Part shown: positions 3,662-28,916 of the stretch, piece after piece
How positions within the stretch are numbered: the first letter of the stretch is position 1
How the letters are laid out: each line of letters starts with the position of its first letter
NCBI GenBank assembly: GCA_964568755.1
Contig: CAZMRX010000001.1
Location: 1 to 52,808 of the forward strand
Reading direction: 5' to 3'
Source of the DNA: an uncultured Acidobacteriota bacterium
GTDB taxonomy: Bacteria > Acidobacteriota > Vicinamibacteria > Fen-336
Length of the DNA: 52,808 bases
The notes under the pieces: model-generated
Databases searched by the model: none
Told to the model about the DNA's origin: nothing
Seen by the model: the letters and a program-made list of their open reading frames with translations, nothing else
Made by a program: the position numbers and the translations under genes

Positions 3662-3774
3662 TTCACTTCCCCGCCGTACCAGTCCGCACGCCGCCAGGCA
3701 TGCCCACGCAGGCGCGCCTCGACGCTCGCGCGCAGGCATCCTGCCGAGACTGCGATGGCGCAGGTGGCCTAGGG

Positions 3775-3780
3775 TAGACT
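3775..3780 (+). promoter_or_regulatory. -10-like hexamer TAGACT upstream of the symporter gene
   Basis: TAGACTCGG lies 38 nt before the ATG at 3818. GAGG sits 6 nt before that ATG. The same 9-mer TAGACTCGG recurs at 36618. No clear -35 element. Confidence 0.3.
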
Positions 3781-3817
3781 CGGGCGCCGGTCGAGGGGAA
3801 TCCAAGCGAGGTCGCGG

Positions 3818-5185
3818 ATGCTCGAAACGCTGGGGGCGTGGCACGGCGTCGTGAACGGCTGGGTCTGGGGCCCGGTCACCATGGCGCTGCTGATGGGGAC
3901 CGGCGTCTACCTGACGCTGCTCACCCGCGGCGTGCAGTTCCGCTGGCTGGCCAAGGCGCTGCGGGAAGTGCTGGGACAGGTCTTCTCGAAGTCGCGCGCC
4001 GAGGGCACGGTGTCGCCGTTCCAGGCGGTGGCGACCGCGCTCGCCTCGACCGTCGGCGTCGGCAACATCGCGGGCGTCTCGACGGCGATCACGATCGGCG
4101 GGCCGGGCGCGCTGTTCTGGCTGATGGTCTCGGGGCTGCTCGGGATGGCCACCAAGTTCGCCGAGGTCGTGCTCGCGCTCACCTATCGCGAGAAGGACGC
4201 GGACGGCACCTGGCGCGGCGGCGCCATGTACATCCTGAAGAACGGGCTCGGAAAGCCCTGGCTCGGGACGCTGTTTGCCCTGCTCACGGCGCTCGCGGCC
4301 TTCGGCATCGGCAACATGGTCCAGGCCAACAGCGTCGCCGAGTCGATGAAGGCGAGCTTCGGCGTCTCGCCGGTCGTGAGCGGCGTCGTGATCGTCGCGC
4401 TCACCGCGGTCGTGATCCTGGGCGGCATCACGCGCATCGCCGAGGTCACGCAGTTCCTGGTGCCCTTCATGTGCATCTCCTACCTGATCGGCGCTGCCGT
4501 GATCCTGACGACGCACGTGGGCGACCTGCCGGCCGTGTTCGAGACCGTCCTGACCTCGGCCTTCACCGGCCACGCGGCGGTCGGCGGCTTCGCCGGGGCG
4601 GGCGTGATGCAGGCCATGCGCTTCGGGATCGCCCGCGGCCTGTTCAGCAACGAGGCCGGCCTCGGCTCGGCGCCGATGGTCCACGCGACGGCGCGCACCG
4701 ACCACCCGGTGCGCCAGGGTCTCTACGGCATCTTCGAGGTGTTCGTGGACACGATCCTGGTCTGCGCCTCGACCGGCCTGGTGGTGCTGGTCACCGGCGA
4801 GTGGTCCAAGGGCGCCACGGGCGCGGCGCTCGCGGCGAAGGCCTTCGAGACGGGGCTGCCCGGCGTGTGGGGCGACGTGGTGGTGACGACCGGCATCCTC
4901 ACTTTCGCGTTCTCCACCCTGCTCGGCTGGTCCTTCTATGGCGAGACCGCGACCGCGTACCTCTTCGGGACGAAGTCGATCCTGCCCTACCGCCTGCTGT
5001 GGCTCGTCGCCGCGTACCTCGGCGCCACCGGCTCGCTGCACGTCGTGTGGGACGTCGCCGACACGCTCAACGGCCTGATGGCCCTGCCGAACCTGGTCGC
5101 GCTCCTGGTCCTGAGCCCGGTGGTCGCGCGCTCGCTTCGCGAGTTCGCGGAGCGGGAGGCCGCGGCGGCGGGACGCTCGCGGTAG
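3818..5185 (+). CDS. Alanine/glycine:cation symporter (AGCS family)
   Basis: 455-aa polytopic ORF with the AGCS hallmark SPFQAVATALASTVGVGNIAGVSTAI near the N-terminus. It also has FSNEAGLGSAP and about 11 hydrophobic segments. Confidence 0.85.
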   Translation: MLETLGAWHGVVNGWVWGPVTMALLMGTGVYLTLLTRGVQFRWLAKALREVLGQVFSKSRAEGTVSPFQAVATALASTVGVGNIAGVSTAITIGGPGALFWLMVSGLLGMATKFAEVVLALTYREKDADGTWRGGAMYILKNGLGKPWLGTLFALLTALAAFGIGNMVQANSVAESMKASFGVSPVVSGVVIVALTAVVILGGITRIAEVTQFLVPFMCISYLIGAAVILTTHVGDLPAVFETVLTSAFTGHAAVGGFAGAGVMQAMRFGIARGLFSNEAGLGSAPMVHATARTDHPVRQGLYGIFEVFVDTILVCASTGLVVLVTGEWSKGATGAALAAKAFETGLPGVWGDVVVTTGILTFAFSTLLGWSFYGETATAYLFGTKSILPYRLLWLVAAYLGATGSLHVVWDVADTLNGLMALPNLVALLVLSPVVARSLREFAEREAAAAGRSR

Positions 5186-5204
5186 CGTCTCTGGAGCGGG
5201 ACGC

Positions 5205-6338
5205 GTGAAGGTCGCGGTGGTGGGGGCGGGCCCGGCGGGGTCGCTGCTCTCCTACCATCTCGCCCGCGACGGCGCGGCTGTCACCGCATTCGACGCCTCG
5301 CACCCGCGCGAGAAGCCCTGCGGCGGCGGCGTCACGGGCAAGGCGCTGGCGCTGCTGCCGCCTTCTCCGCCCGACGATCCGCTGCCGGCTCGCTTCGTGG
5401 ACGCCTGCCGTTTCGAGTCGGGGCTGGGCGAGGCCGTAGAGGTGCCGCTCGCACGAGCCGTGGCGGTGGCCTCGCGCCGCGAGCTGGACGCGTGGCTGCT
5501 GCGTCGGGCGACCGAGGCCGGAGCGCTCCACGCGGCCGAGCGGGTGGTGGAGGTCGACGCGTCCGGACGCGTCCGCACCAGCGCGGGTCGCGACGAGCGC
5601 TTCGACCTGATCGTCGGGGCCGACGGCGCCGGGAGCCTCGTGCGCCGCACCTTCCTGGAGCCGACGCCGACCGCCCGCCTGCACATGGCCGTCGGCTGGT
5701 TCGCCCGAGGCGCGGCGCCGATGCTGGTCCGCTTCGCGCCGGACCTCCGAGGCTATCTCTGGCTGTTTCCCCGTCCCGACCACGTGGGCGTCGGAATCGC
5801 CGCGCCCCTGGCCCTCGTTCCCACGCGCCAGCTTCTCGGCCGGCTCGAGGCGGAGGTGGCGCGCCACTTCCCCGCCCTCGTCGACGACGACGCGGGCCGC
5901 TACGCCCACACCATCCCTTCGCCCTCCGCCGACCCGCGGTCGATCCTGGAGATCGCGGGGAAGGGCTTCGCCCTGGTCGGCGACGCCGCCGCGCTCGTCG
6001 ACCCGATCACGGGCGAAGGCATCTACTACGCGCTCCGGTCCGCGCGCGTGCTCGCCGACACGCTGCGGGCGGAGGGCGCCCCGGCTCGCTATCCCGAGCG
6101 GGCGCTCGAGGACTTCGGCCGCGAGCTGCTGAAGGCAGCCGCCTTGAGCGACCGCTTCTACGCGCCGGGCTTCTCGCGCCGCATGGTCGCGTACGCGGGG
6201 CAAAGCCGGGCGATCCGTAACGTCCTCGGCGACCTGGTGCTCGGCGATCAGGGATACGTCGGGCTGAAGCGGCGCCTGCTGCGGGCCGGCCCCCGCTTCC
6301 TGCTCGAGGCCGGTCTCCACCGCCTCACTTCGGCTTGA
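5205..6338 (+). CDS. Geranylgeranyl-reductase-family FAD-dependent oxidoreductase
   Basis: 377 aa. N-terminal Rossmann motif VVGAGPAGS followed by EKPCGGGV and later GDAAALVDPITGEGI, the typical pattern of geranylgeranyl reductase / FixC-like flavoproteins. Confidence 0.7.
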   Translation: MKVAVVGAGPAGSLLSYHLARDGAAVTAFDASHPREKPCGGGVTGKALALLPPSPPDDPLPARFVDACRFESGLGEAVEVPLARAVAVASRRELDAWLLRRATEAGALHAAERVVEVDASGRVRTSAGRDERFDLIVGADGAGSLVRRTFLEPTPTARLHMAVGWFARGAAPMLVRFAPDLRGYLWLFPRPDHVGVGIAAPLALVPTRQLLGRLEAEVARHFPALVDDDAGRYAHTIPSPSADPRSILEIAGKGFALVGDAAALVDPITGEGIYYALRSARVLADTLRAEGAPARYPERALEDFGRELLKAAALSDRFYAPGFSRRMVAYAGQSRAIRNVLGDLVLGDQGYVGLKRRLLRAGPRFLLEAGLHRLTSA

Positions 6339-16396: not shown

Positions 16397-19300
16397 ATGA
16401 TCGGACAGACGGTCGGCCACTACGAGGTCGAAGAGCGCCTCGGCGGCGGCGGCATGGGCGTCGTCTACCGGGCGCGCGACCGCAAGCTCGGCCGCCAGGT
16501 GGCGCTCAAGTTCCTGTCCTCGCACCTGGTGGCGAGCGAGCGCGCCAAGCAGCGCTTCATGGCCGAGGCGCGCGCCGCCTCTGCGCTCGACCACCCGGCG
16601 ATCGCCACGATCCACGCGATCGAGGAGACGAAGGACGGCGAGCTCTACATCGTGATGGCCTACTACGAGGGCGAGACGATCGCCACGCGGCTCTCGCGGC
16701 GCGGTGCGATCCCGGTGGGCCAGGCGATCGAGCTCGCGCTGCAGGCGGCCGAGGGCCTGGCGCGCGCCCACGAGAGCGGCATCGTGCACCGCGACGTCAA
16801 GCCCGCCAACCTGATGCTCACGGCGGACGAGCGTCTGAAGGTGCTCGACTTCGGGCTCGCCAAGGTCGAGGACGTGCGCCTGACGGACGCCGGCACCACG
16901 CTCGGGACGCCGGCCTACATGTCCCCCGAGCAGGCGCGCGGCGCCCCGCTCGACCACCGCACCGACGTCTGGTCGCTCGGGGTCGTGCTCTACGAGATGC
17001 TGACCGGGCGCCTGCCGTTCACCGGCGAGCACCGCGAGCAGGTGCTCGAGGCCGTGCGCCATGCCGACCCCTTGCCCCCGAGCCGCCTTGCCAGCGTGCC
17101 GCCCGAGCTCGAGGCGGTCGTGCTGCGGGCGCTCAGCCGCGCTCCTGCCGCGCGCCAGCCGACGATGGCCGCGTTCCTGGGCGAGCTGCGCGCGGTGCGC
17201 GACTCGCGCATCGGAGCCTCCAGCGCGGACACGCTGGTGCGCCCGGCCTCCCCGACCGAGCGCGACGCGCCCACGGCGGCCCCGACGGATCGTTCGACGA
17301 TGCCGTCGGGAGAGCGTCGCTTCGTGAGCGTGCTCGCGTGCGACGTGGCCGACATCCTCTCGCTGTCCGAGGACACCGACCCCGAGGAGCTGCGCGAGGT
17401 GCTGGCGCGCTGCCACGAGACGGGCGCCGCCGTGGTGCGGCGGCTCGACGGGCACCTGGCGAAGGCCGACGAGGGCCGCCTGGTGGCCTACTTCGGCTAC
17501 CCGGTGGCGCACGAGGACGACGCGCAGCGCGCGGTGCGTGCCGCGATGGCGATCGTCGCCGAGCTGTCGCGGCCGGACTCGCCCCGCGGACCGGCATCCG
17601 CCCCGCTGCTGCCCCGGGCCGCCGTCCACACCGGCCTGATGGTCGCGGGCGACGCACGCTCGTCGGGCGCCGGCCTGGTGGGCAACGCCCCGGCGATCGC
17701 CGCGCGCCTCGTCGAGCGGGCGCAGCCCGGCTCGGTGCTCGTGAGCTCCGACACCCGCCCGCTGGTCGAGCGGCTGTTCGAGCTGGAGGAGGCGGGCGAG
17801 CTGGCGCTGCCCGGGCTCAGCCGGCCGGTGACGCTCGCGCGCGTGCTGTGCGAGAGCAGCGCGGAGTCGAGCGGGATCTCGCGGGCCGCGCTCACGCCGT
17901 TCGTGGGCCGCGAGGAGGACCTGGCGCTGGTGCTGGCGCGCTTCGAGCTCGCGCGCGAAGGACACGGCCAGGCGGTGCTGGTCTCCGGCGAGCCCGGGAT
18001 CGGCAAGTCGCGGCTGCTTTTCGAGCTCGGCGAGCGCCTGCGCGACGCGCCCCACTTCCTGCTCGAGTGCCGATCCTCGCCCTACCACACCAACCACGCG
18101 CTCCACCCCGTGATCGAGATGCTGTCCCGGCTCGCCCGGCTCGAGGACGCGCACACGCCTGACGAGAAGCGCGAGCGCCTGACGCGCGCGCTCGAGCCCG
18201 TGGGGGCCAGCCCCGAGACGGTGGCGCTCCTGACCGACGCGCTGTCGCTCCCGCCGGACGAGGCGCGCTCGCCGCTCGAGCTCACGCCGCAGAAGCGCAA
18301 GCAGAAGACGCTCGAGGCGATGCTGCAGCTGGTGCTGGCGGCGTCGGCGCGCAAGCCCGTGCTGCTGGTGGTGGAGGACCTGCACTGGCTGGATCCCTCG
18401 AGCGACGAGGTGCTGGAAGCGGTGGTGCGCCAGGCGACCGGCGCCGCGGTGCTCGTGATCGCCACCGCGCGGCCGGGCGCGAGCCCCAGCTGGGCGAGCG
18501 AGGAGCACGTGACCCGCCTCGCGCTGCGCCGGCTCTCGCGGCTGCAGACCGAGCGGCTGGTCGAGCGCGTCGCCGGCAAGGGCGGGCTGCCCGCCGCGAT
18601 CGTGGAGCAGGTGCTGAGCCGCACCGACGGCGTCCCGCTGTTCGCCGAGGAGCTGACGCGCGCGATCTGCGATGCCGCGGCGGTCCAGGATTCCGGCCAG
18701 CGGCCCACGGCCGAGGCGCTCGCCACGTTCGTGCCCGCGACGCTGCAGGAGTCGCTGGCCGCACGCCTCGACCGGCTCGGCCCCGCGAAAGGCACGGCCC
18801 AGCTGGCCGCCGTGCTCGGGCGCGAGTTCCCGCTGCGCTGGCTCGAGGCCGTCACGCCGCTGTCGGCCGACGCGCTGCGCGGCGAGCTCGAGAAGCTGGT
18901 CGACTCGGGTCTGCTCCAGCCGCGCGGACCCGCGCCGGCGTCCACCTACCTGTTCAAGCACGGTCTGGTGCAGGAAGCGGCCTACGCGTCGCTGCTCAAG
19001 ACGACGCGCCAGCAGTACCACGAGCGGGTGGCGCGCGCGCTCGAGGAGCGCTTCCCGGAGACGGCGAAAGCGCAGCCGCACCTCCTGGCGCACCACCTCA
19101 CGGAGGCCGGCCAAGCCCCCGCCGCGATCGTGTGGTGGTCGCGCGCCGCGGATCGGGCGGGCGACCGCTTCGCGAGCCGCGAGGCCGTGGCCAACCTGCG
19201 GCGGGCGCTCGACCTGCTGCCGACGCTGCCCGAGGGTCGTGAGCGCGACGGATACGAGCTGGGCCTCCAGATGGGCGTGTGTGCTCTGCTCCCGAGCGTG

Positions 19301-20482
19301 AGCGGCTACACCTCGGCCGAGACCGAGCAGGCCTACCTGCGGGCGCAGGAGCTGTGCGACCGCGCGGGCCGCGTGGCCGAGAACTTCTTCGTCCACCATG
19401 GGCTCTGGGCTTTCCACCTGGTGTGCGGCCGGCTCGAGGTCGCGCACGAGCGGGCGCGGGCGCTCCTCGATGCGGGGCTCGAGCGAGGCGACACGCTCTC
19501 GGTCCTCGACGGTCACTACGCGCTCGGCTGCACGCTCGCCGACATCGGAGAGACCGAGGCCTCGCTCCACCACCTCGAGCGGGGAACCGCCGTGGACGAA
19601 GCCGATCCCGGCCGGGCCCCGAGCTACCACGCCGGGATGGAGCTGGGCATCACGACACCGGCGTTCGCGGTGATGCCGCTGTGGCTGCTCGGCCGCCCCG
19701 ACGCCGCCCTCGAGCGCGCCCGGCGCACCGCCGAGAAGGCGCGGGCGCTCGGCCACCCGCTGAGCCTCGCTTTCGCGCTCTACTACGTCACCTGGGCCCA
19801 CGTGCACCGGGGCGAGGCGGCGCGGGCCGCGGAGAGCGCGAGAGAGATCCTGAGGCTGTCCGAGGAGCACGGGCTGTTCTTCGGGCCGCTCGGCGGGGCG
19901 ATGCTGGGCTGGGCGCTCGACCAGGAGGCCTCGCTGGTCGCCGCGTGGCGCGCACCGCGACCGATGGAGGCCGAGGCGTCCCCGGCCAGCGACGAGGACT
20001 TCGAGCGCGTCGCGATGAGCCTGCGCCTCTACCAGGGCTCGGGCGCGGTGCTGAACGTCCCGTTCATGCTCTGGCTGGTGGCGCTCGGCCACGCGCGGCG
20101 CCGCCGTTTCGCCGAGGCCCGTGCGGCGGTGGACGAGGCGCTCAGGGTGGTGGCCGAGACGAAGGAGACCTGGTGGCAGGCCGAGCTGCTGCGGCTCTCC
20201 GGCGAGCTGGCGCTCGCGCTCGCGGCCGGCAGCGAAGCCGGACAGGCCGCGGCGCGCGACGAGGCCGAAGCCGCGTTCGCGCGCGCCGGCGAGATCGCCG
20301 CGAGCCAGAAGGCGCTCGCGCTCGAGCTGCGCGCGGCGGCGAGCCTGGCGCGGCTGCGGAAGGACCGGGGCCGGGCGAAAGACGGCAACGCCGCCCTGGC
20401 CGCGGTGCTCGCGCGCTTCGCCGAAGGCCACGCCACCGGCGACCTCGTCGCCGCGCGCGCGCTGCTCGCCGAGCTCCAGTAG
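16397..20482 (+). CDS. Multidomain sensor: Ser/Thr protein kinase, class III cyclase-homology domain, AAA/STAND ATPase and TPR-like helical repeats
   Basis: 1361 aa. Kinase motifs: LGGGGMGVVY, VALKFL, HRDVKPANLM, DFGLAK, MSPEQ. Cyclase-like block around aa 307-483: RRFVSVLACDVADILS...GRLVAYFGYP...AVHTGLMVAGD. P-loop LVSGEPGIGKSRLL with LLVVEDLHWLD. The C-terminal roughly 450 aa are helical repeats. Confidence 0.85.
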   Translation: MIGQTVGHYEVEERLGGGGMGVVYRARDRKLGRQVALKFLSSHLVASERAKQRFMAEARAASALDHPAIATIHAIEETKDGELYIVMAYYEGETIATRLSRRGAIPVGQAIELALQAAEGLARAHESGIVHRDVKPANLMLTADERLKVLDFGLAKVEDVRLTDAGTTLGTPAYMSPEQARGAPLDHRTDVWSLGVVLYEMLTGRLPFTGEHREQVLEAVRHADPLPPSRLASVPPELEAVVLRALSRAPAARQPTMAAFLGELRAVRDSRIGASSADTLVRPASPTERDAPTAAPTDRSTMPSGERRFVSVLACDVADILSLSEDTDPEELREVLARCHETGAAVVRRLDGHLAKADEGRLVAYFGYPVAHEDDAQRAVRAAMAIVAELSRPDSPRGPASAPLLPRAAVHTGLMVAGDARSSGAGLVGNAPAIAARLVERAQPGSVLVSSDTRPLVERLFELEEAGELALPGLSRPVTLARVLCESSAESSGISRAALTPFVGREEDLALVLARFELAREGHGQAVLVSGEPGIGKSRLLFELGERLRDAPHFLLECRSSPYHTNHALHPVIEMLSRLARLEDAHTPDEKRERLTRALEPVGASPETVALLTDALSLPPDEARSPLELTPQKRKQKTLEAMLQLVLAASARKPVLLVVEDLHWLDPSSDEVLEAVVRQATGAAVLVIATARPGASPSWASEEHVTRLALRRLSRLQTERLVERVAGKGGLPAAIVEQVLSRTDGVPLFAEELTRAICDAAAVQDSGQRPTAEALATFVPATLQESLAARLDRLGPAKGTAQLAAVLGREFPLRWLEAVTPLSADALRGELEKLVDSGLLQPRGPAPASTYLFKHGLVQEAAYASLLKTTRQQYHERVARALEERFPETAKAQPHLLAHHLTEAGQAPAAIVWWSRAADRAGDRFASREAVANLRRALDLLPTLPEGRERDGYELGLQMGVCALLPSVSGYTSAETEQAYLRAQELCDRAGRVAENFFVHHGLWAFHLVCGRLEVAHERARALLDAGLERGDTLSVLDGHYALGCTLADIGETEASLHHLERGTAVDEADPGRAPSYHAGMELGITTPAFAVMPLWLLGRPDAALERARRTAEKARALGHPLSLAFALYYVTWAHVHRGEAARAAESAREILRLSEEHGLFFGPLGGAMLGWALDQEASLVAAWRAPRPMEAEASPASDEDFERVAMSLRLYQGSGAVLNVPFMLWLVALGHARRRRFAEARAAVDEALRVVAETKETWWQAELLRLSGELALALAAGSEAGQAAARDEAEAAFARAGEIAASQKALALELRAAASLARLRKDRGRAKDGNAALAAVLARFAEGHATGDLVAARALLAELQ

Positions 20483-20511: not shown

Positions 20512-22839
20512 ATGCCCACGCTTCGCGGCTTCATCCTTCACCCGACCTACCGGGTCGAGGCGGGCGCGCCGGTCCTTCACCTGTACGGGCGGCTCGAGGA
20601 CGCGCGGCCGTTCCTGGTGCGCGAACGCCGGCTGGTGCCGCGCTTCTACGTCGAGTCGCAGGACTCGGAGCGGGCCAGAACCAAGGGCGCGGTACGGCAG
20701 GCGCCCACCGACCAGGTCACGCTCGCGGGGCGACCCGTCGCGCGGGTCGAGGTGGCCGAGCCCGGGGACGTCCCCGCGCTGCGCGAGCGGCTGGCGCGGG
20801 CGGGGGTCGCGACGTACGAGGCGGACGTGCGCTTCGCGATGCGGCACCTGATCGACCGCGGCATCCGCGGGTCCGTCGAGATCCGGGGCGAGGGCCGCGA
20901 GACGCCCGGCACGGGCGTCGTCTTCGAGGATCCCGAGCTCGTGCCCGCCGACTGGACGCCGCGGCTGCGCGTGCTCTCGATCGACATCGAGACCGATCCC
21001 CTGGCGCGCCGCCTGCTCGCGATCGGCCTTCACGGCTGCTCGGCCTCGGAGGTGCTGCTGCTGACCGCCGAGGGCCGCCCGTGTCCGGACGGCGCCCGCC
21101 CTTTCGCCACCCAGCGCGACCTGCTCCAAGGCTTCTGCGCGCGCGTGCGCGAGCTCGACCCCGACGTGCTGACCGGCTGGAACGTCGTCGACTTCGACCT
21201 GGCCGTGCTCGACCGCGTCGCGCGAGCCGAGCGCGTCCCGCTCGCGCTCGGCCGCGGGCCGGAGCCGCTGCGGCTGCGACCGATGGCCGGCACGCGCGGC
21301 GCGCTGCAGGCGAGCCTGCCCGATCGCGTGGTGCTCGACGGCATCCGCCTGCTGCGCGGCGCCTTCGTGCGGATGGACGACTACGGCCTCGACGCCGTCG
21401 CGCGCGCGGTGCTGGGCGAGGGCAAGACGCTCGCCGGCCACGGGCGCGCGGAGGAGATCCTGCGCCTGTTCGAGGAGGACCGCGAGCGGCTGGTGCTCTA
21501 CAACCGCACCGACGCACGCCTCGCGCTCGAGATCCTCGAGCGGCTGCGGCTCGTGGAGCTCGCGGTCGAGCGAAGCCGGCTCACCGGCCTGCCGCTCGAC
21601 CGGGTCGCTTCGTCGATCGCGGCCTTCGACTTCCTGTACCTCTCGGCTCTCGGAAGGCGCCACGTGGTCGCCCCGAGCGTGCGCGCGTCGGGCGAGACGG
21701 TGGAGCCGCAGACCGGCGGCCACGTGCTCGAGCCGCTCCCCGGCCTCTACACGAACGTCGTCGTGCTCGACTTCAAGAGCCTCTATCCGAGCCTGATCCG
21801 CACCTTCGAGATCGACCCCCTCAACCTGATCCGACCCGAGGCCGGACAGGCGGGAGACGAGGCGATCGTGGCCCCGAGCGGAGCCGCCTTCGCACGCCGC
21901 AAGGGCCTGCTGAGCGAGATCCTCGACGAGCTGATGCCGCGGCGCGAGGAGGCGCGCCGCGCGGGCGACACCGTCAAGAGCCACGCGATCAAGATCCTGA
22001 TGAACTCCTTCTATGGCGTGCTCGGGACGCCGGCCTGCCGCTTCTACGACCCGCGCCTCGCCAACGCGATCACCGGGTTCGGGCGCGAGCTGCTGCTCTG
22101 GTGCCAGGCGCGAATCGAGAAGGGCGGCCGGCGCGTGCTCTACGGCGACACCGACAGCCTGTTCGTGGAGACGGGCGCCGCGGACGCCGCCGCGGCCCGA
22201 GGCGTCGGCGAGTCGCTCGCGGCCGAGCTCAACCGCGATCTCGAACGGCACATCCAGGCGCGCTGGCGCGTGACCAGCCGGCTCGAGCTCGCCTTCGACC
22301 GGCTGTATCTGCGCCTGTGCCTGCCGGCCATGCGCGGCGGCACCGCGGGGGCGCGCAAGCGCTACGCCGGCCTCGTCGACGCGGCGGCGGGCGCGCGCGT
22401 CGTCTTCACCGGCATGGAAGCGGTCCGCGGCGATTGGACCGAGCTCGCCAAGCAGGTGCAGCGCGAGCTGTACGCGCGGCTCTTCGGCGACCGGCCGGTC
22501 TTCGAGTACCTGCGTGGAGTGGTCGCCGAGCTGCGCAATGGCGCGCACGACGACCTTCTGGTGTACCGCAAGGCGCTGCGCAAGCCGCCCGAGGCCTACA
22601 CCGCGACGACGCCCCCGCACGTGGCGGCCGCGCGCAAGATGCCGGGGAAGACCCGCGGCCGGGTGGCCTACGTCGTCACCACCGACGGCCCCGAGCCCGC
22701 TGACGAGCGGCGCCACCCGATCGACTACGAGCACTACGTCGAGCGGCAGCTGCGCGCGGTCGCCGAGCCCGTCCTGCTGCTCCTCGGCCAGGACTGGGAC
22801 GACGTCTCGGGCTCGCGGAAGCAGCTCTCGCTGTTCTGA
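20512..22839 (+). CDS. polB: Family-B DNA polymerase (Pol II type)
   Basis: 775 aa from ATG 20512. Exo I motif LSIDIETD. Pol motifs A LDFKSLYPSLI, B KILMNSFYG and C YGDTDSLFV. Size and layout resemble E. coli Pol II. Confidence 0.85.
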   Translation: MPTLRGFILHPTYRVEAGAPVLHLYGRLEDARPFLVRERRLVPRFYVESQDSERARTKGAVRQAPTDQVTLAGRPVARVEVAEPGDVPALRERLARAGVATYEADVRFAMRHLIDRGIRGSVEIRGEGRETPGTGVVFEDPELVPADWTPRLRVLSIDIETDPLARRLLAIGLHGCSASEVLLLTAEGRPCPDGARPFATQRDLLQGFCARVRELDPDVLTGWNVVDFDLAVLDRVARAERVPLALGRGPEPLRLRPMAGTRGALQASLPDRVVLDGIRLLRGAFVRMDDYGLDAVARAVLGEGKTLAGHGRAEEILRLFEEDRERLVLYNRTDARLALEILERLRLVELAVERSRLTGLPLDRVASSIAAFDFLYLSALGRRHVVAPSVRASGETVEPQTGGHVLEPLPGLYTNVVVLDFKSLYPSLIRTFEIDPLNLIRPEAGQAGDEAIVAPSGAAFARRKGLLSEILDELMPRREEARRAGDTVKSHAIKILMNSFYGVLGTPACRFYDPRLANAITGFGRELLLWCQARIEKGGRRVLYGDTDSLFVETGAADAAAARGVGESLAAELNRDLERHIQARWRVTSRLELAFDRLYLRLCLPAMRGGTAGARKRYAGLVDAAAGARVVFTGMEAVRGDWTELAKQVQRELYARLFGDRPVFEYLRGVVAELRNGAHDDLLVYRKALRKPPEAYTATTPPHVAAARKMPGKTRGRVAYVVTTDGPEPADERRHPIDYEHYVERQLRAVAEPVLLLLGQDWDDVSGSRKQLSLF

Positions 22840-22847
22840 GCCCGGCC

Positions 22848-23819
22848 TCAGCGCGCGTTCGCGGGGAGGATCTGGAGCGCGCTGCGGCTGCCGCCGGGCG
22901 CGAAGTAGCCGGTGCGGTGGCGGACCTGCAGGCTGCCCTGCCGCGTCCTGACCGCGATCCGCCGGAAGCGGCCGTCGGCGCTCGGGTTGAGCGGCACGTA
23001 GCCGACGCCGTAGAGCGTGCGCAGCTCGGAAGCGATGCGGTCGTAAGCCCCGTCTAGCTCGACGAGCGAGCGCGGGAAGTAGGCGCGGCCGCCGGTCTCG
23101 CGCGCGAGCGCCGTCAGCACGTAGGTCGGCACGGTGGGCGCGGGATGCCCCGGCACCGGCGGCGTCAGCAGGCCGATCGTGTAGATCACCACGCCGGAGC
23201 GGCGCGCGAGGTCGATCAGCTGCTCGTCGTCGACCATCGAGGCGGTGTCCTCGCCGTCCGAGAGCACCACGATCGCGCGCCGCTGCATCGCGTCGGGGTC
23301 GTGGCGGCGCGCCTGGTCCTTGAGCGTGACGTAGAGCGCGTTGTAGAGAGCGGTGTCGCCCAGCGGCGAGACCGCGTCCACCGCGCGCTCGAGCGCCGCG
23401 ACGTCCCCCGTCGACTCCTGGAGCACGCGCAGGCTGCGGCTGAACTGGGCGACCTCGGCCTCGTCCCCCGGCCCGAGGGTTCGCAGCAGGCGCTGAGCCG
23501 CGCGCTTGGCGACGGGCAGGACCGTCCCCATCGAGCCCGAGGCGTCGAGCATCACGTGCAGACGGATCGGCCACTCCTCCTGCGCGAACAGGCTGATGGG
23601 CTGGGGAACGCCGTCCTCGAGCAGCGTGATGTCGTCGGGGTTGAGCCCTGCGACCTGGCGGCCGCCCGCGTCGGTGACCACGAGGTTCAGGCTCACCACC
23701 TCGACGCCGACGGCGAACGTCGGTACACGCGGCTGGCTCCCGGCCTGGAGCGTTCCGGCCGCGAGCGCCAGCAGCAGCGCTCCCCCGCCGGCTCGAAGCG
23801 TCCCTGACTGGTGCCCCAT
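22848..23819 (-). CDS. Secreted von Willebrand factor A (VWA) domain protein, acidobacterial VWFA-related type
   Basis: 323 aa with a signal peptide. N-terminal beta-sandwich-like region (FAVGVEVVSLNLVVTDAGGRQVAGLNPDDITLLEDGVPQ) followed by the MIDAS motif LDASGSM. This architecture is the one I associate with TIGR03436. Confidence 0.75.
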   Translation of the reverse strand: MGHQSGTLRAGGGALLLALAAGTLQAGSQPRVPTFAVGVEVVSLNLVVTDAGGRQVAGLNPDDITLLEDGVPQPISLFAQEEWPIRLHVMLDASGSMGTVLPVAKRAAQRLLRTLGPGDEAEVAQFSRSLRVLQESTGDVAALERAVDAVSPLGDTALYNALYVTLKDQARRHDPDAMQRRAIVVLSDGEDTASMVDDEQLIDLARRSGVVIYTIGLLTPPVPGHPAPTVPTYVLTALARETGGRAYFPRSLVELDGAYDRIASELRTLYGVGYVPLNPSADGRFRRIAVRTRQGSLQVRHRTGYFAPGGSRSALQILPANAR

Positions 23820-24007
23820 CGCGTCCCCCGGCTCGCGGAGGGTGCAAGACGCGTTCCGAGTGGCGAGCGGCGACCATCCGCAGCCGCGTCAATGCGTTGC
23901 CGGGTCGCCGTCACCTCGGACTCACGCGACGCGAAGGCGGGCGTCCGCTTTTCGGAATCCGGACGAGCGGGCCCGTCGCGAGTGTTTTCGGGACCGGCGC
24001 CAGGCGG

Positions 24008-24667
24008 TTACTTCGGCTGCGGCACGATCCGCAGGTAGGGCTTGGGCGCCTTCCAGCCCGCGGGGTACTTCTCCTTGGCCTCGGCGTCCGAGACCGCGGG
24101 GACGATGATCACGTCCTCGCCCTGCTTCCAGTTCACCGGCGTCGCCACCTTGTGCTTCGCCGTGAGCTGGCAGGAGTCCAGGATCCGCAGGACCTCGTCG
24201 AAGTTGCGCCCGGTGCTCATCGGGTACGTGAGCATGGCCTTGATCTTCTTGTCCGGCCCCACCACGAACACCGAACGGACCGTGGCGTTGTCGGCCGCGG
24301 TGCGGCCCTGCGAGGTGCTCCCGGCTTCTTCCGGCAGCATGTCGTAGGCCTTGGCGACCTTGAGCTCGGGGTCGCCGATCATCGGGTAGGTGACCTTGTG
24401 GCCCTGGGTCTCCTCGATGTCCTTCGACCAGCGCACGTGGTCGTCCACGGGGTCGACGCTCAGGCCGATGATCTTCGTGTTGCGCTTGTCGAACTCGCTC
24501 TTGAGCGAGGCCATGTAGCCGAGCTCGGTGGTGCAAACCGGCGTGAAGTCCTTCGGGTGCGAGAACAGGATCGCCCAGCCCTGGCCGATCCACTCGTGGA
24601 AGTCGACCGGCCCCTGGGTGGTGTCCGCCTTGAAGTTCGGAGCCTCACTGTTTATGCGCAAAGCCAT
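24008..24667 (-). CDS. 1-Cys peroxiredoxin (Prx6 subfamily)
   Basis: 219 aa. Contains MALRINSEAPNF...WAILFSHPKDFTPVCTTE, the canonical peroxidatic-Cys motif. Confidence 0.9.
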   Translation of the reverse strand: MALRINSEAPNFKADTTQGPVDFHEWIGQGWAILFSHPKDFTPVCTTELGYMASLKSEFDKRNTKIIGLSVDPVDDHVRWSKDIEETQGHKVTYPMIGDPELKVAKAYDMLPEEAGSTSQGRTAADNATVRSVFVVGPDKKIKAMLTYPMSTGRNFDEVLRILDSCQLTAKHKVATPVNWKQGEDVIIVPAVSDAEAKEKYPAGWKAPKPYLRIVPQPK

Positions 24668-24742
24668 GCAATCCTCCCCAACTGTTCTTTGCCACCGAAC
24701 ATACCACCCCGACGGCGGGACGGGCCAGCTCCCAACGAGAGC

Positions 24743-25906
24743 TCAGGCCAGCCTGCGAATGTCGGCGAGCGAGTCGGGGATCAGGAACGTGACCTCGCCG
24801 TTCCAGCTGCGGTGGATCAGGCCCTGGAACAGCAGCCGGCTGACGCTTTCGTCCACCCGGCCGGGCATGTCGTCGATCGCCCGGTGCGAGAAGCGCACGA
24901 TGCCGAGCAGGACCGCCTTCAGCAGGCGGTGCCCGAGCACCGGCGGGATCTTGACGCGCGCGCAGCCCTCGGCCCCGATCAGGTCTTGCATGTAGATCCG
25001 CGGCACCACGCCGAATCCGGCGAGGCGCCAGGCGCGCGGGATCATGTCCTGCAGCATCCGCAGGTTGGCCCACGCGAGCTCGACGCCCTTGGGGTTCGCT
25101 TCCGGGCCCACGTAGTGACGCCGCTTGAAGGCCGCGTAGAACTCGGCCGCCTCGGCGACGCTGGCCGGCACCCACTCGCCGCTCTCGGGCCGTCCCGCGG
25201 GGTGGATCCCGACCAGCTGGGAGTAGATCCGCCACAGGTAGTAGAGGTCCTCTTCCTCGTCGGGCCGCAGCCCCACGCCGAGGATGCGCATGCCGTCGAT
25301 CACCAGGTAGGAGAAGCCCATCACGGTCGCGAGCATGTCCTCGAGGTTGATGGGCGGCCCGTAGCGCGCGACGTCGAAGGGCGGCTTCATCTGCCGCAGC
25401 ACGAGCGCGCGGATCGCGGCGTGCATCAGCCGCATCTTCTGGGCGGTGGTGATCGCCTTGCCGCCCGGCTCGAAGCCGCGCGGCGACGACACGTTCACCA
25501 CCATCTGCAGCACGCCCAGCAGGCGCCGATACGGGTGGCGCTTGAGGTCCTCCGACAGGCTGAGGATCTCGCCGAAGGACGGCGCCGAGTACCCCTCCGG
25601 CAGCGACTTGGCGAGCAGCACCAACGCCGCCGGGAAGGCGTGCTTCATCCAGATGAACTCGCCGCGAGAGATGCGCGCGAGGTCCGTGCCGGGCGGCAGC
25701 GCCCGGGTGGTGGCGAAGAACTCGACGAGAGCTGCGGGCGCTCCCTCGGGCACGCGGTCGTCGTTGGAGGTGACGTGGCGGAACAGCGCCGCCGAGCCCG
25801 CGGCGCCGCCCTCCGTGAACAGGCGTTTCACGCAGGCGTCGGCCTCGTCGTCGACGTGGCGGCGGATCTCGTCGAGGAATGCGTCTTCCGACCAGCGCGT
25901 GGGCAT
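24743..25906 (-). CDS. MpaB / DUF2236-family oxygenase (rubber-oxygenase/Lcp superfamily)
   Basis: 387 aa, all-helical, with the DUF2236-like core ...KRHPYRRLLGVLQMVVNV...TAQKMRLMHAAIR.... Its start lies 3 nt after the stop of the upstream membrane-protein gene. Confidence 0.55.
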   Translation of the reverse strand: MPTRWSEDAFLDEIRRHVDDEADACVKRLFTEGGAAGSAALFRHVTSNDDRVPEGAPAALVEFFATTRALPPGTDLARISRGEFIWMKHAFPAALVLLAKSLPEGYSAPSFGEILSLSEDLKRHPYRRLLGVLQMVVNVSSPRGFEPGGKAITTAQKMRLMHAAIRALVLRQMKPPFDVARYGPPINLEDMLATVMGFSYLVIDGMRILGVGLRPDEEEDLYYLWRIYSQLVGIHPAGRPESGEWVPASVAEAAEFYAAFKRRHYVGPEANPKGVELAWANLRMLQDMIPRAWRLAGFGVVPRIYMQDLIGAEGCARVKIPPVLGHRLLKAVLLGIVRFSHRAIDDMPGRVDESVSRLLFQGLIHRSWNGEVTFLIPDSLADIRRLA

Positions 25907-25909
25907 GGC

Positions 25910-26572
25910 TCAGGCCGCCCCCGGGACCCGGCGCGTGTGGAACAGCCACACGTAGTAGACGTCGAGCACCAGCGTCACCGCGCACAGCGTCTGCAGGAAG
26001 TGGTTCTCGGGATACACGAGCACGCAGAAGCCGATCACCAGGCCGTTGCCGAGCAGCTTGCACCAGGCGACGAAGGGCGAGTAGGGCGTGCGGTCGCGCT
26101 CGCGGAAGAACTGCGGGATGTAGAGCGCCGACATCAGCAGCGTCGCCATGTAGCCGGAGACGAGGCCGGTCGAGGTGTCGTAGCCCTGGCGAACCATCAG
26201 GTAGATCGTCCCCGTGAAGGCCAGGATCGCGAGGACCACCGACACGCGGAAGTACTCGCGCAGCTTCGGCGTCTGGAGGTGCCGAACGCCGTAGCGCAGC
26301 AGGCCCCAGACGATGAACACGTCGAGCAGGAACCAGAGGCGGTAGCCCCAGACGAAGATCTCCCCGAGGTCGGTGCGGTAGACGATCCCCCACGTGAACT
26401 CCCAGGCGATGTTGACGCAGACGGCCGTGGCCGGGATCTCGACGAACTTGTTGCGCACGATCTCGCGCAGCACGCCCATGTAGGCGAGCGCCCACGCGAT
26501 CCCGCCGGCCGCGAAGAACAGCAGCTCCGGGGTCGAGTACTTCGCGGTGTTGATCAGCGGCTCGGGGCTCAT
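25910..26572 (-). CDS. 7-TM membrane protein, paralog B; candidate Pyr4/PaxB-type transmembrane terpene cyclase
   Basis: 220 aa from ATG 26572, which forms an ATGA overlap with paralog A. About 7 hydrophobic helices. Conserved NIAWEF in TM2 and LVLDVYY in the last TM. About 45% identical by eye to the adjacent gene. Confidence 0.55.
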   Translation of the reverse strand: MSPEPLINTAKYSTPELLFFAAGGIAWALAYMGVLREIVRNKFVEIPATAVCVNIAWEFTWGIVYRTDLGEIFVWGYRLWFLLDVFIVWGLLRYGVRHLQTPKLREYFRVSVVLAILAFTGTIYLMVRQGYDTSTGLVSGYMATLLMSALYIPQFFRERDRTPYSPFVAWCKLLGNGLVIGFCVLVYPENHFLQTLCAVTLVLDVYYVWLFHTRRVPGAA

Positions 26573-27270
26573 CGGGCCTCCTCGCGGGTCGCCGAGACGA
26601 GGTCGGCCGCGCGGCCGGAGCGAATCCAGTAGAAGAGGCCGATGTAGAGCAGGTCGAGCGCGAGCGTCAGCAGGCACAGCAGCAGCAGGTACGGGTTGTG
26701 CGACTGGACGACGAAGTTGAAGACCGTGAGCAGGGCGGTGCCGAGCATCTTGCTCCAGGCCACGACCAGCGAGAACTCGTAGAGGTGGCCGTGGCGCAGG
26801 ATGATCACCACGTACAGCGCCGACATCATCGTGTTCAGGATGTAGCCCGAGATGGCGCCGTAGCCGGTGTCGTAGCCCTCGCCCACGAAGTAGTAGATCC
26901 CCACGGCCCACGCTGCGATGCCGAAGACGCAGGCGGGGCGGAAGATGGCCCGCAGCTCCGGCAGCCCCATCTGCCGCTCACCGAAGCGGAAGAGCATGTA
27001 CACGATCGCGAGGTCGAAGAAGAACCAGGCCCGATAGCCCCAGGAGAAGAAGCGGCCGAGCTCGTTCGGGTAGAGGAAGCCCCACACGAACTCCCAGGCG
27101 ATGTTGGCGACCACCGCCCCGGCGGGGATCTCGAGGAACTGGTTGTGGAGCGCGTTCTTGACGATCGCCACGTAGGCCACGACCCAGCCGAAGCAGCCGA
27201 CCCCGAACAGGATCAGCAGCGGGACCGAGTACTGGCTGGTGTTGAACCACTCCGTCGTCGCAACGGGCAT
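26569..27270 (-). CDS. 7-TM membrane protein, paralog A; candidate Pyr4/PaxB-type transmembrane terpene cyclase
   Basis: 233 aa from ATG 27270. Same architecture as paralog B, with motifs NIAWEFVWG and LALDLLY. First gene of a three-gene minus-strand operon. Confidence 0.55.
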   Translation of the reverse strand: MPVATTEWFNTSQYSVPLLILFGVGCFGWVVAYVAIVKNALHNQFLEIPAGAVVANIAWEFVWGFLYPNELGRFFSWGYRAWFFFDLAIVYMLFRFGERQMGLPELRAIFRPACVFGIAAWAVGIYYFVGEGYDTGYGAISGYILNTMMSALYVVIILRHGHLYEFSLVVAWSKMLGTALLTVFNFVVQSHNPYLLLLCLLTLALDLLYIGLFYWIRSGRAADLVSATREEAR

Positions 27271-27494
27271 GCCGGCACCCCCAGGGAGCGGCCCCGCGGC
27301 CGCACGAGAACGAGCACAACGGACGGCGAGAACGTGTGACGCGACGGAAGTCGGCGCGGATGCTACCCGGACCGGGGCGTCACCCGCAAGCGACCAGCGA
27401 CCCATGGACAGGGTCGACGCGCGGTTTGCCGAACCCGCGGCCGGCGTTTCGCGTAATGGCTGGTGCAGGGGTCTGCTGCCCGGGAGGAGGAGCG

Positions 27495-27971
27495 GTGCCG
27501 AGGAAGCTGACGCGCGACACGCGAGGGGCGGTTTTGGCAGGCGTGGCGGCCGGATTCGGTCGGTACCTGGACGTCGACCCGGTGCTGGCGCGCCTGGGCT
27601 TCGTGCTGCTGGCCTTCGTAAACGGCCTGGGAGTGCTGATCTACCTGGCGGGCTGGGCGCTCATGCCGCGGGAAGACGCGGCGGCAGCCGAGGGCTCTTC
27701 CGGCTCCGCGTCCGCTGGGCCCGGATTCGAGGCGCTTCGCAGCGCCGGCAACGAGTTCGCGGCCGAGGTTCAAAAGGCCACCGCCGATCCCGCCTCCGCT
27801 CAGCTCGCGATCGGCTCGGTCCTGGTTCTCACGGGAGGCCTGCTGCTCGCCCACAACCTGGGCTGGCTGCACTGGCCGCACTGGATGCGCTTCGAGACGC
27901 TGTGGCCGCTGCTGCTCGTCGCGCTGGGCCTGGGCCTGGTGTTCAAGTCGAGGAAACCGGCTTCAGCCTGA
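27495..27971 (+). CDS. PspC-domain membrane protein
   Basis: GTG 27495 is preceded by GGGAGGAGGA. N-terminus VPRKLTRDTRGAVLAGVAAGFGRYLDVDPVLARLGFVLLAF...IYLAGWALMP is a textbook PspC domain. C-terminal TM segments are present. Confidence 0.75.
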   Translation: MPRKLTRDTRGAVLAGVAAGFGRYLDVDPVLARLGFVLLAFVNGLGVLIYLAGWALMPREDAAAAEGSSGSASAGPGFEALRSAGNEFAAEVQKATADPASAQLAIGSVLVLTGGLLLAHNLGWLHWPHWMRFETLWPLLLVALGLGLVFKSRKPASA

Positions 27972-27989
27972 CGTCGAGATTGGGGCCTC

Positions 27990-28916
27990 CTAGATCGCCT
28001 TCGCGATCAGCTCGGCGACGCGGTCGAAGCCGGAGCGCGTCGGGTGCAGCTCGTCGTTCCAGTCGGCCCGGTAGCCCGCGGGCATGGCCGACGACAGCGT
28101 GCCGCGCAGGTCCACGTAGCGGACGTGCCGCTGCCCCGCCGAGGCGAGGTCTTTGATGAGGCGCGCGAGCATGGCGTTGTGGCGGTCGATCAGCTCCCGC
28201 ACGACCTCGGCGTTCGTGGTGAGCGCGGCAACCCGGCGACCCTTCTCGGCAGGGACGTAGCCCTTGCGGCGGAATCCCGGCTCGAGCCACGGGCCGGGCA
28301 GGACCCAGCCGCCGCCGAGGTAGCCGCGCCCGTCCGGGATCGCATGGTCGTAGCCGTGCACCACCACCTTCACGCGCTCGCCGAAGTGCGCCTCGGAGAG
28401 CCGGGTCACGACACCGATCAGGCTCGCCATCGCCGTGCGCAGCCGCTCGTCGATGATCCCCTGCGCCACGGTGGCGTTGAGCCGGGGCAGCCCTGACCCG
28501 CTGTGGTTGAGCAGCAGCGGGAACTCGTCGCCGGCGATGTCGTTGCCGCCGCCCGAGAGCAGGATCGCCCGCGGCTTGCCCCCGCGAGCGTGGACCTTCT
28601 CGAACGCTCGCGTCAGCTTGTCGACCTGGGCCGCCTCGTGGGCCATGTCCTCCAGCGTGTCGCCCTTGTGCGCAACGGACTCGATCTCGAAGCCGCGCGC
28701 CTCCAGGCAGCCGAGCACGTCGTAGAACGGGTAGTCGAACCAGGAATCGCCCTCGGCGATCAGCAGGCCGAGGCGCTTCCTGGCCGCCGCCGCGGCACGC
28801 GCCGCCGCGCGCCGGCGCAGCACTTCGCCGGCGAGCGCCGCCCCCGTGTCGAAGGAACGCCGCGCGTCGACGCGCGAGCCCACTTGCTTCGTGCCAGCCG
28901 CGCCACGTCTCTTCAT
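27990..28916 (-). CDS. SGNH/GDSL-family hydrolase, no signal peptide
   Basis: 308 aa. Block I is AEGDSWFDYP, block III is LSGGGNDI and block V is NDELHPT. The N-terminus is Arg/Ala-rich, not signal-like. Confidence 0.7.
   Translation of the reverse strand: MKRRGAAGTKQVGSRVDARRSFDTGAALAGEVLRRRAAARAAAAARKRLGLLIAEGDSWFDYPFYDVLGCLEARGFEIESVAHKGDTLEDMAHEAAQVDKLTRAFEKVHARGGKPRAILLSGGGNDIAGDEFPLLLNHSGSGLPRLNATVAQGIIDERLRTAMASLIGVVTRLSEAHFGERVKVVVHGYDHAIPDGRGYLGGGWVLPGPWLEPGFRRKGYVPAEKGRRVAALTTNAEVVRELIDRHNAMLARLIKDLASAGQRHVRYVDLRGTLSSAMPAGYRADWNDELHPTRSGFDRVAELIAKAI

Follow-up and report, generated by a model that had tools for sequence, protein, structure and literature searches.

We analysed a window of 52,808 nucleotides (positions 1 to 52,808 of the forward strand of contig CAZMRX010000001.1, assembly GCA_964568755.1) from an uncultured, soil-type bacterium of the Vicinamibacteria (Acidobacteriota). 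Three genes on its minus strand, here termed A, B and C, encode two paralogous seven-transmembrane (7-TM) proteins and an oxygenase-like protein. A reading made from the sequence alone had proposed that these genes form a terpenoid or meroterpenoid tailoring module. The protein families that it named point to isoprenoid chemistry, and the genes that accompany the module in related genomes encode signalling proteins; the role of the module looks regulatory or sensory rather than one of natural-product tailoring. The genes of the module are as follows.

26569–27270, minus strand: gene A, a 233-amino-acid 7-TM protein, A-type paralogue of the Pyr4-type family (PF25129; AlphaFold2 (AF2) model)

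25910–26572, minus strand: gene B, a 220-amino-acid paralogue of A, B-type (PF25129), coupled to A by an ATGA overlap

24743–25906, minus strand: gene C, a 387-amino-acid MpaB/Lcp-type globin-fold protein, probably a haem b oxygenase (PF09995; match to LcpK30)

The stop codon of A and the start codon of B overlap in the tetranucleotide ATGA at 26569–26572, with a GAGGAGG Shine-Dalgarno sequence 5 nucleotides upstream. B and C are separated by a 3-nucleotide gap at 25907–25909 (TGA GCC ATG), right after which C begins. The three genes are translationally coupled, and the tight packing described in the sequence-only reading holds in its boundaries, overlap and gap. Dozens of homologues of A begin at the equivalent of MPVATTEW, which gives a protein of 233 amino acids, and a longer open reading frame (ORF) start at 27405 is unused by homologues. 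A scan for promoters and terminators returned no signal beyond the shuffled expectation.

A and B both belong to the Pyr4-type transmembrane terpene cyclases. Against the Pfam profile PF25129 (Pyr4-TMTC; length 227, curated gathering cut-off 27 bits), A scored 66.4 bits (residues 23–217 on profile positions 22–225) and B scored 65.7 bits (18–211 on 19–221), and both matches were repeated in a genome-level search. This places the two proteins in the Pyr4/PaxB-like family that the sequence-only reading had put forward as a candidate. The two proteins share 44% identity in an ungapped alignment of 213 residues (E = 8e-62), where that reading had estimated about 45% by eye. In NCBIfam, A matched no family and B gave two matches far below threshold (16 bits against a cut-off of 363, and 13 against 135). 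The AF2 model of A, built on 23 homologues, has seven long helices (residues 16–43, 50–66, 73–100, 110–129, 136–160, 168–188 and 193–217) with a predicted local distance difference test (pLDDT) score of 90.5 and a predicted template modelling (pTM) score of 0.85. A sequence search of the PDB with A gave zero matches at E ≤ 10, and there is no Pyr4-type structure in that database. When the model was used for a fold search, the best matches were 7-TM proteins of the SWEET, PQ-loop, KDEL-receptor and cystinosin types, all of them weak (TM-score 0.53–0.57, E at least 9e-3). We do not take the SWEET, KDEL-receptor and cystinosin matches as a sign that A is a transporter; they reflect a likeness in 7-TM topology. 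An unrelated family such as the PQ-loop proteins had been named as the alternative that would overturn the Pyr4 assignment; the profiles place both proteins in Pyr4-TMTC, and the PQ-loop and SWEET likeness amounts to a weak resemblance in fold.

Residues of the catalytic type are conserved. In the numbering of A, which is used throughout, E47, N56, W59, E60, W63, D86, D134, K174, D206 and Y209 are all invariant in 23 homologues. The motifs seen by eye in both A and B are real, with E47, N56, W59, E60, W63, D206 and Y209 among these invariant positions, and the Glu near residue 60 and the Asp near the C terminus, to which the sequence-only reading had drawn attention, are kept in distant family members as well. 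Across 84 sequences from the clade of A and B, W29, Y33, N56, W59, E60, D86, G97, D134, G138, S167 and D206 are each kept in at least 93%; E60 and D206 are both found in 81 of the 84, and position 174 is Lys in 64 and Arg in 17. In an outgroup of six distant Pyr4-TMTC proteins, E60 and D86 are kept, and D206 is kept in four and replaced by Asn in two. E47 and D134 are specific to the clade of A and B, unlike the family-wide E60, D86 and D206. The active-site residues named for Pyr4 are E63 and D218 (PMC6486709), and the Brønsted acid of Pyr4-like enzymes is a conserved Glu (PMC13307353, supplementary information). Profile coordinates and family-wide conservation fit a correspondence of E60 to Pyr4 E63 and of D206 to Pyr4 D218. 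From the positive-inside rule and the cytoplasmic C-terminal fusion partners found in relatives (see below), A and B are predicted to lie in the membrane with the N terminus out and the C terminus in; E60 (TM2), D86 (TM3) and D206 (TM7) would therefore be in the membrane core.

A maximum-likelihood tree built from 90 Pyr4-like sequences unites the B-type copies of Vicinamibacteria with those of Gemmatimonadota in a single clade (support of 95 in the Shimodaira–Hasegawa-like approximate likelihood ratio test, SH-aLRT), and the A-type copies group apart from them, together with the single-copy genes of Thermoanaerobaculia. Because the two types separate in this way, the duplication that gave rise to A and B is old and the copies have been retained in tandem. 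Three Gemmatimonadaceae (L023, L026 and L027) carry a second, B-type Pyr4-like gene in which E60 is replaced by Val, Ile or Ala and D86 is lost, and the adjoining A-type gene is intact. This B-type copy is a probable pseudo-enzyme subunit. Loss of acids in the B-type protein next to an intact A-type protein is what one would expect if the two formed a heteromer, one subunit being catalytic and the other auxiliary. A and B of the window both keep all of the conserved acids.

C scored 57.9 bits against PF09995 (MPAB_Lcp_cat, also DUF2236; gathering cut-off 23 bits), in agreement with the MpaB/DUF2236-type oxygenase suggested from the sequence alone. It matched the LcpK30 chains 5O1L and 5O1M at E = 5e-13 (phmmer). 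The AF2 model of C (pLDDT 83.8) matched 5O1L over its whole length (TM-score 0.74–0.76, E = 2e-11, sequence identity only 18–21%), and this Foldseek search found nothing significant besides LcpK30; in NCBIfam, C matches no family. R128, R159, H162 and R166 of C align with R164, R195, H198 and R202 of Lcp and are invariant in all 46 module-linked C homologues. In LcpK30, which has a 3/3 globin fold resembling that of globin-coupled sensors, the haem is bound on its proximal side by His198, which is 100% conserved; Arg164 is essential in the active site, and Arg195 and Arg202 stabilise the protein (PMC5522427). On the distal side, Lys167 (conserved in only 59% of Lcps; PMC5522427) and Thr168 are replaced by Gly and Val in C, and Glu148 aligns to Phe. 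Because these residues are not kept, C is not a rubber oxygenase proper, which leaves its membership of the wider family unaffected. We regard C as probably a haem-type member of that wider MpaB/Lcp family, with the haem His and active-site Arg intact and haem binding predicted. The N terminus of C (MPTRWSEDAF..., MPTRWSEDAFLDEIRRHV) has no hydrophobic or twin-arginine signal, as judged by reading the sequence, and since no secretion signal is visible the protein is probably intracellular.

To place the module among its relatives, we used loci from species-representative genomes (60 loci), metagenome contigs and a search of the phylum Acidobacteriota; all of the related loci are from metagenome-assembled genomes (MAGs). 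The proteins closest to A and B come from MAGs of Vicinamibacteria. A profile of the clade found 1,061 representatives at E ≤ 1e-3 and 626 at E ≤ 1e-10 in 1.84 billion proteins clustered at 50% identity, and the clade includes Acidobacteriota (Vicinamibacteria and Thermoanaerobaculia), Gemmatimonadota, Bacteroidota, Ignavibacteriota, Chlorobiota, Fibrobacterota, Spirochaetota and one MAG labelled Hyphomicrobiales. Within the Acidobacteriota, only 8 of the 301 genomes searched have the family, and it was not found in a genome of the same genus (G059) or in one of the same family (G278).

A homologue of C adjoins the Pyr4-like gene or genes in most loci, in an orientation that differs by lineage: it follows them in the same direction in Vicinamibacteria, is convergent with them in Gemmatimonadota and divergent from them in Thermoanaerobaculia, and precedes them in the same direction in Bacteroidota. 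Of the Bacteroidota loci, 13 lack C and have in its place a 560-amino-acid flavoprotein of the amine-oxidase superfamily, directly upstream of the Pyr4-like gene; its best NCBIfam matches are zeta-carotene desaturase, HpnE and phytoene desaturase, all far below cut-off. Either a C homologue or this flavoprotein is adjacent in 59 of the 64 in-clade loci, and the window has the same adjacency, C following 3 nucleotides after B. The neighbours in 71 loci were clustered all against all, with every ORF of at least 90 amino acids included and flanks of up to 10 kb per side. Among the families that recurred there was no polyprenyl synthase, UbiA-type prenyltransferase, terpene synthase, polyketide synthase, cytochrome P450 or epoxidase; the prenyltransferase and polyketide genes that the sequence-only reading had suggested as a check of genomic context in relatives were looked for here, and none recurs. 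Within 10 kb of the module in the window itself there is no prenyltransferase, polyprenyl synthase, epoxidase or P450.

Signalling genes do recur. Flanks of 1.5 kb or more on both sides are available for 40 loci, and in 35 of these a signalling gene lies no more than 300 bp from the module; the background, counted over 452 kb of flank at distances above 3 kb, is 10 signalling genes. The partners are of several types. In Gemmatimonadota and several Acidobacteriota, a Guanylate_cyc-AAA_16-TPR protein is encoded immediately upstream of A, and in Vicinamibacteria a STAND protein of Ser/Thr-kinase-(cyclase)-AAA_16 architecture adjoins C. In Bacteroidota and their allies the signalling gene is downstream, often with a 4-nucleotide overlap onto the Pyr4-like gene, and encodes a histidine kinase (HisKA_2 or HisKA), a SpoIIE/PP2C phosphatase, an AAA_16-TPR protein or a 1,760-amino-acid kinase-AAA_16-GAF-SpoIIE protein. 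The pairing of cyclase and oxidase, and the adjacency or fusion of the module to signalling proteins, recur over about ten phyla.

The membrane kinases and phosphatases among these partners have in common an N-terminal multi-TM domain of about 200 amino acids that is weakly MASE7-like in 8 of 12 members (best E = 2.8e-5, below cut-off). This shared domain may be the cognate receiver for the product of the module. Genes with the MASE7-like domain are found just downstream of the Pyr4-like gene in L035, L038, L039, L042, L043, L056, L062 and L067 and comprise two histidine-kinase types and PP2C. A relationship between this partner domain and the Pyr4-like domain was considered and rejected (hhalign probability 0.5%).

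Some relatives of A and B carry the partner domain in the same polypeptide. The extended forms are listed here.

P0156 and P0192: Pyr4-like domain fused to HisKA-HATPase_c

P0191: Pyr4-like domain fused to GGDEF-EAL

P0194 (Chlorobiota locus L065): Pyr4-like domain fused to Guanylate_cyc, of the adenylate cyclase type

P0223: Pyr4-like domain fused to PAS and receiver domains

P0193: Pyr4-like domain fused to MPAB_Lcp_cat, the oxygenase domain

P0188: Pyr4-like protein with an extension matching no Pfam family

In the fusions the Pyr4-like domain is N-terminal, with the partner domain at its C terminus, and all seven of these forms keep E47, E60, D86 and D206. The fusion of a Pyr4-like domain to MPAB_Lcp_cat in P0193 is Rosetta-stone evidence that A/B and C act together, and the fusions to output domains place the 7-TM domain in a sensory-input position. 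Two metagenome proteins in which the Pyr4-like domain is joined to a TonB-dependent receptor (Plug and barrel; P0140, 899 amino acids, and P0261, 921 amino acids) were set aside as probable gene-calling merges. In locus L006 a TonB receptor gene adjoins the module on the opposite strand.

The genes that surround the module in the window are these.

16397–20482, plus strand: STAND signalling protein of 1,361 amino acids, with a Ser/Thr kinase, a weak nucleotide-cyclase domain, AAA_16 and helical repeats

20599–22839, plus strand: family-B DNA polymerase (Pfam)

22848–23819, minus strand: VWA-domain protein (Pfam)

24008–24667, minus strand: 1-Cys peroxiredoxin (AhpC-TSA and 1-cysPrx_C)

27336–27971, plus strand: PspC/LiaF-TM membrane-stress-type gene, divergent from A (PspC and LiaI-LiaF-like_TM1)

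Unlike most related loci, the window lacks a signalling gene fused to the module or within 300 bp of it. The nearest is the STAND gene, 4.3 kb from C and on the opposite strand, and the genes between it and the module are those for the peroxiredoxin, the VWA protein and the family-B DNA polymerase. Over its length, the window STAND protein is 56–80% identical to the products of the STAND genes in L003, L016, L018 and L019; these genes adjoin C on the opposite strand in L003, L018 and L019 and come after C and the peroxiredoxin gene in L016. Given this identity to STAND genes found at the module in relatives, the window gene is their orthologue and the likely signalling partner of the module, separated from it by local rearrangement. 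The DNA polymerase and VWA genes gave zero matches of at least 150 residues at E ≤ 1e-20 in the related loci, and they lie outside the conserved module.

The peroxiredoxin gene, directly downstream as the sequence-only reading had reported, begins 75 nucleotides after C with its own GGGGAGG Shine-Dalgarno sequence, and occupies this position only in L016 and L017, which are the closest relatives. The PspC/LiaF-TM gene has its ORF cluster in four loci, including L016, and its position facing the module is kept only in close relatives. The G+C content of positions 24001–28000 is 0.675–0.683, against 0.73–0.75 on both sides; the hydrophobic membrane proteins encoded there account for part of the lower value. 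The low G+C and the lack of the module in the searched genome of the same genus fit an accessory, possibly transferred, segment. An empty-site test in G059 and G278 found the flanking genes scattered over contigs, at 71–76% identity, and no clean insertion site.

An isoprenoid is our best guess for the substrate of the module. The source genome (G000, 90% complete) has a crtY-crtI-crtB-type cluster and, on contig C261 (locus L079, about 2454–5641), tandem hpnC/hpnD-like squalene/phytoene-synthase genes beside an HpnE-like amine oxidase; since these genes are present, carotenoids and squalene should be available in the cell. A squalene-hopene cyclase (PF13243) was not detected in this genome at its 90% completeness. 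An SQS_PSY gene is found in 42 of 50 module-bearing genomes, a co-occurrence that decides neither for nor against a carotenoid or squalene substrate. The side chain of menaquinone or a polyprenol would be equally possible, because MpaB' acts on a prenylated aromatic compound (PMC6900556).

We propose that A, B and C make up an O2-dependent unit that oxidises and cyclises a membrane isoprenoid lipid and whose state is read by signalling proteins, and we put the chance of this being correct at about even. Support for isoprenoid chemistry comes from the convergence on the module of three enzyme families whose characterised members all act on isoprenoids. C would work at the cytoplasmic surface of the membrane, where it would use O2 to attack a membrane isoprenoid at a C=C bond, by oxidation or cleavage. 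A and B would form a 7-TM heteromer with N termini out and C termini in, whose mid-membrane acids E60, D86 and D206 would cyclise the oxidised chain by protonating it, or would at least bind the chain. Product turnover or occupancy would be read in this bacterium by the STAND kinase/cyclase at 16397–20482, and in other phyla by MASE7-like histidine kinases, PP2C phosphatases, adenylate cyclases or GGDEF-EAL proteins. Such a module would report oxygen, oxidative stress or the state of the membrane lipids, and would not be a natural-product cluster. A more specific form of the proposal makes the terpene-cyclase fold the input device itself: a haem or flavin oxidase would mark a membrane isoprenoid under oxygen or oxidative stress, and the Pyr4-type 7-TM protein would cyclise or bind it, an event that would directly switch kinases, nucleotide cyclases, PP2C phosphatases and cyclic di-GMP enzymes. 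Bacteria would then have, as a widespread system, an equivalent of lipid signalling by apocarotenoids or oxylipins in which the receptor is an enzyme. We offer this form tentatively, as a possibility about which we have more doubt than confidence.

Several observations weigh against the proposed lipid-oxidation unit. No member of the clade has a known activity, substrate or product, and the equation of E60 and D206 with the Pyr4 acids has an indirect basis. The fold of A resembles those of SWEET, PQ-loop and KDEL-receptor proteins (TM-score about 0.55), and a receptor or carrier without an enzymatic role is possible. In the window the STAND gene is not adjacent to the module, three genes lying in between, and STAND proteins are soluble, with no obvious means of reading a membrane lipid. 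Finally, 8 of the 50 module genomes have no detected squalene/phytoene synthase, these being MAGs of unknown completeness.

In an alternative along the lines of the sequence-only reading, the module would perform stand-alone terpenoid or meroterpenoid tailoring, for example cleavage of a carotenoid or quinone side chain and then cyclisation; the product would be a structural lipid or pigment, and the signalling genes would merely regulate expression. The family assignments of A, B and C fit this account, as do the carotenoid and squalene genes of the genome; the characterised Pyr4-like enzymes are all biosynthetic cyclases (PMC13307353, PMC11109268), and MpaB' and Lcp cleave prenyl chains (PMC6900556, PMC5522427). 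The isoprenoid-acting families of that reading have stood, whereas its tailoring module is argued against by the lack of recurring biosynthetic neighbours in the 71 loci, by signalling adjacency that crosses phyla and by the signalling fusions, of which those to kinase, cyclase and GGDEF-EAL proteins are hard to explain by transcriptional regulation alone. In the survey of bacterial Pyr4-like proteins by Kakumu and Helfrich, the only one that we found, 264 of 1,107 sequences were kept for their nearby terpenoid genes and the 843 without such genes were set aside; none of the 264 is from Acidobacteriota or Gemmatimonadota (PMC13307353). Overall, we consider stand-alone tailoring unlikely. We also give a low probability to a sensor complex without any lipid chemistry, in which C would be a haem-based gas or redox sensor and the 7-TM proteins would be receptors or scaffolds signalling to a STAND protein or histidine kinase. 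The globin fold that Lcp shares with globin-coupled sensors (PMC5522427) speaks for it, together with the N-terminal position of the Pyr4-like domain in histidine kinases, GGDEF-EAL proteins and adenylate cyclases, which is typical of sensors, the loss of E60 and D86 in the B-type copies of three Gemmatimonadaceae, the resemblance in fold to the KDEL receptor and SWEET, and the peroxiredoxin next to the module. However, a desaturase-like flavoprotein can stand in for C, a sign of chemistry on a substrate, and the active-site Arg of Lcp (R128 in C) is invariant, as are the family-wide acids of A and B, fused forms included.

Two further explanations draw on the neighbours of the module in the window. 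The module might repair or detoxify oxidised membrane isoprenoids together with the 1-Cys peroxiredoxin and the PspC/LiaF-like protein, the genes for which flank it here and in its nearest relatives; neither neighbour occurs beyond a small number of closely related loci in Vicinamibacteria, in contrast to the signalling neighbours, which span phyla, and we think this explanation improbable. The other would have the STAND NTPase at the centre of an anti-phage defence system with membrane effectors. STAND ATPases and kinases are found in defence systems, and the kinase domain of the window STAND protein matches the PD-T4-6 models of PADLOC. These matches cover only a generic Hanks kinase domain, however, and A, B and C have no PADLOC match; the histidine kinase, PP2C and GGDEF-EAL partners found in relatives are ordinary signalling proteins. 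We rejected the defence explanation on the PADLOC result and regard it as very improbable.

A full-text literature search with the family name, the Pfam accession and DUF2236 found no publication that connects these proteins with signalling. The families themselves are established; their conserved arrangement in three parts, and the signalling genes that accompany it, seem not to have been described before. Pyr4-type cyclases have so far been known solely for producing natural products, in fungi and in a few bacteria, and the locus belongs to the roughly three quarters of bacterial Pyr4-like sequences that were set aside in the survey (PMC13307353), for which it suggests a role. If the proposed lipid-oxidation unit is correct, it would constitute a lipid-derived bacterial sensing pathway that has so far gone unstudied, and would give the very large DUF2236/MpaB family its first physiological role beyond rubber degradation. 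The proteins of the module are small and expressible; mutants of E60, D206 and H162 would be informative, with new lipids, cyclic AMP and phosphorylation as read-outs.

Set beside the Pyr4 family, with its fungal (Pyr4, PaxB, AusL and AdrI) and bacterial (XiaE/XiaH, TylF, DmtA1, GroF and ZigF) members, A and B are alike in their length of about 230 amino acids and their seven TM helices; their conserved Glu in TM2 and Asp in TM7 fit the Brønsted-acid mechanism of the family (PMC6486709; PMC13307353). The module of the window differs in its tandem paralogue pair and in the extra acids E47 and D134. In place of prenyltransferase, epoxidase or terpene synthase neighbours, the module has a haem or flavin oxidase and signalling proteins, and its relatives are fused to signalling output domains. 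C shares with LcpK30 and MpaB (PF09995) the whole-length fold, the proximal haem His and the equivalents of three Arg residues. Lcp is a secreted, extracellular protein, whereas C is probably intracellular; C differs from Lcp also in being genetically coupled to a 7-TM protein, to which its homologue in P0193 is fused. Like the sensor domains MASE, 7TMR-DISM and 5TMR-LYT, the Pyr4-like domain is found in relatives of the module N-terminal to HisKA-HATPase, GGDEF-EAL and adenylate cyclase domains. To our knowledge, those sensor domains have no catalytic chemistry; the Pyr4-like domain differs from them in belonging to an enzyme family and in keeping its catalytic-type acids.

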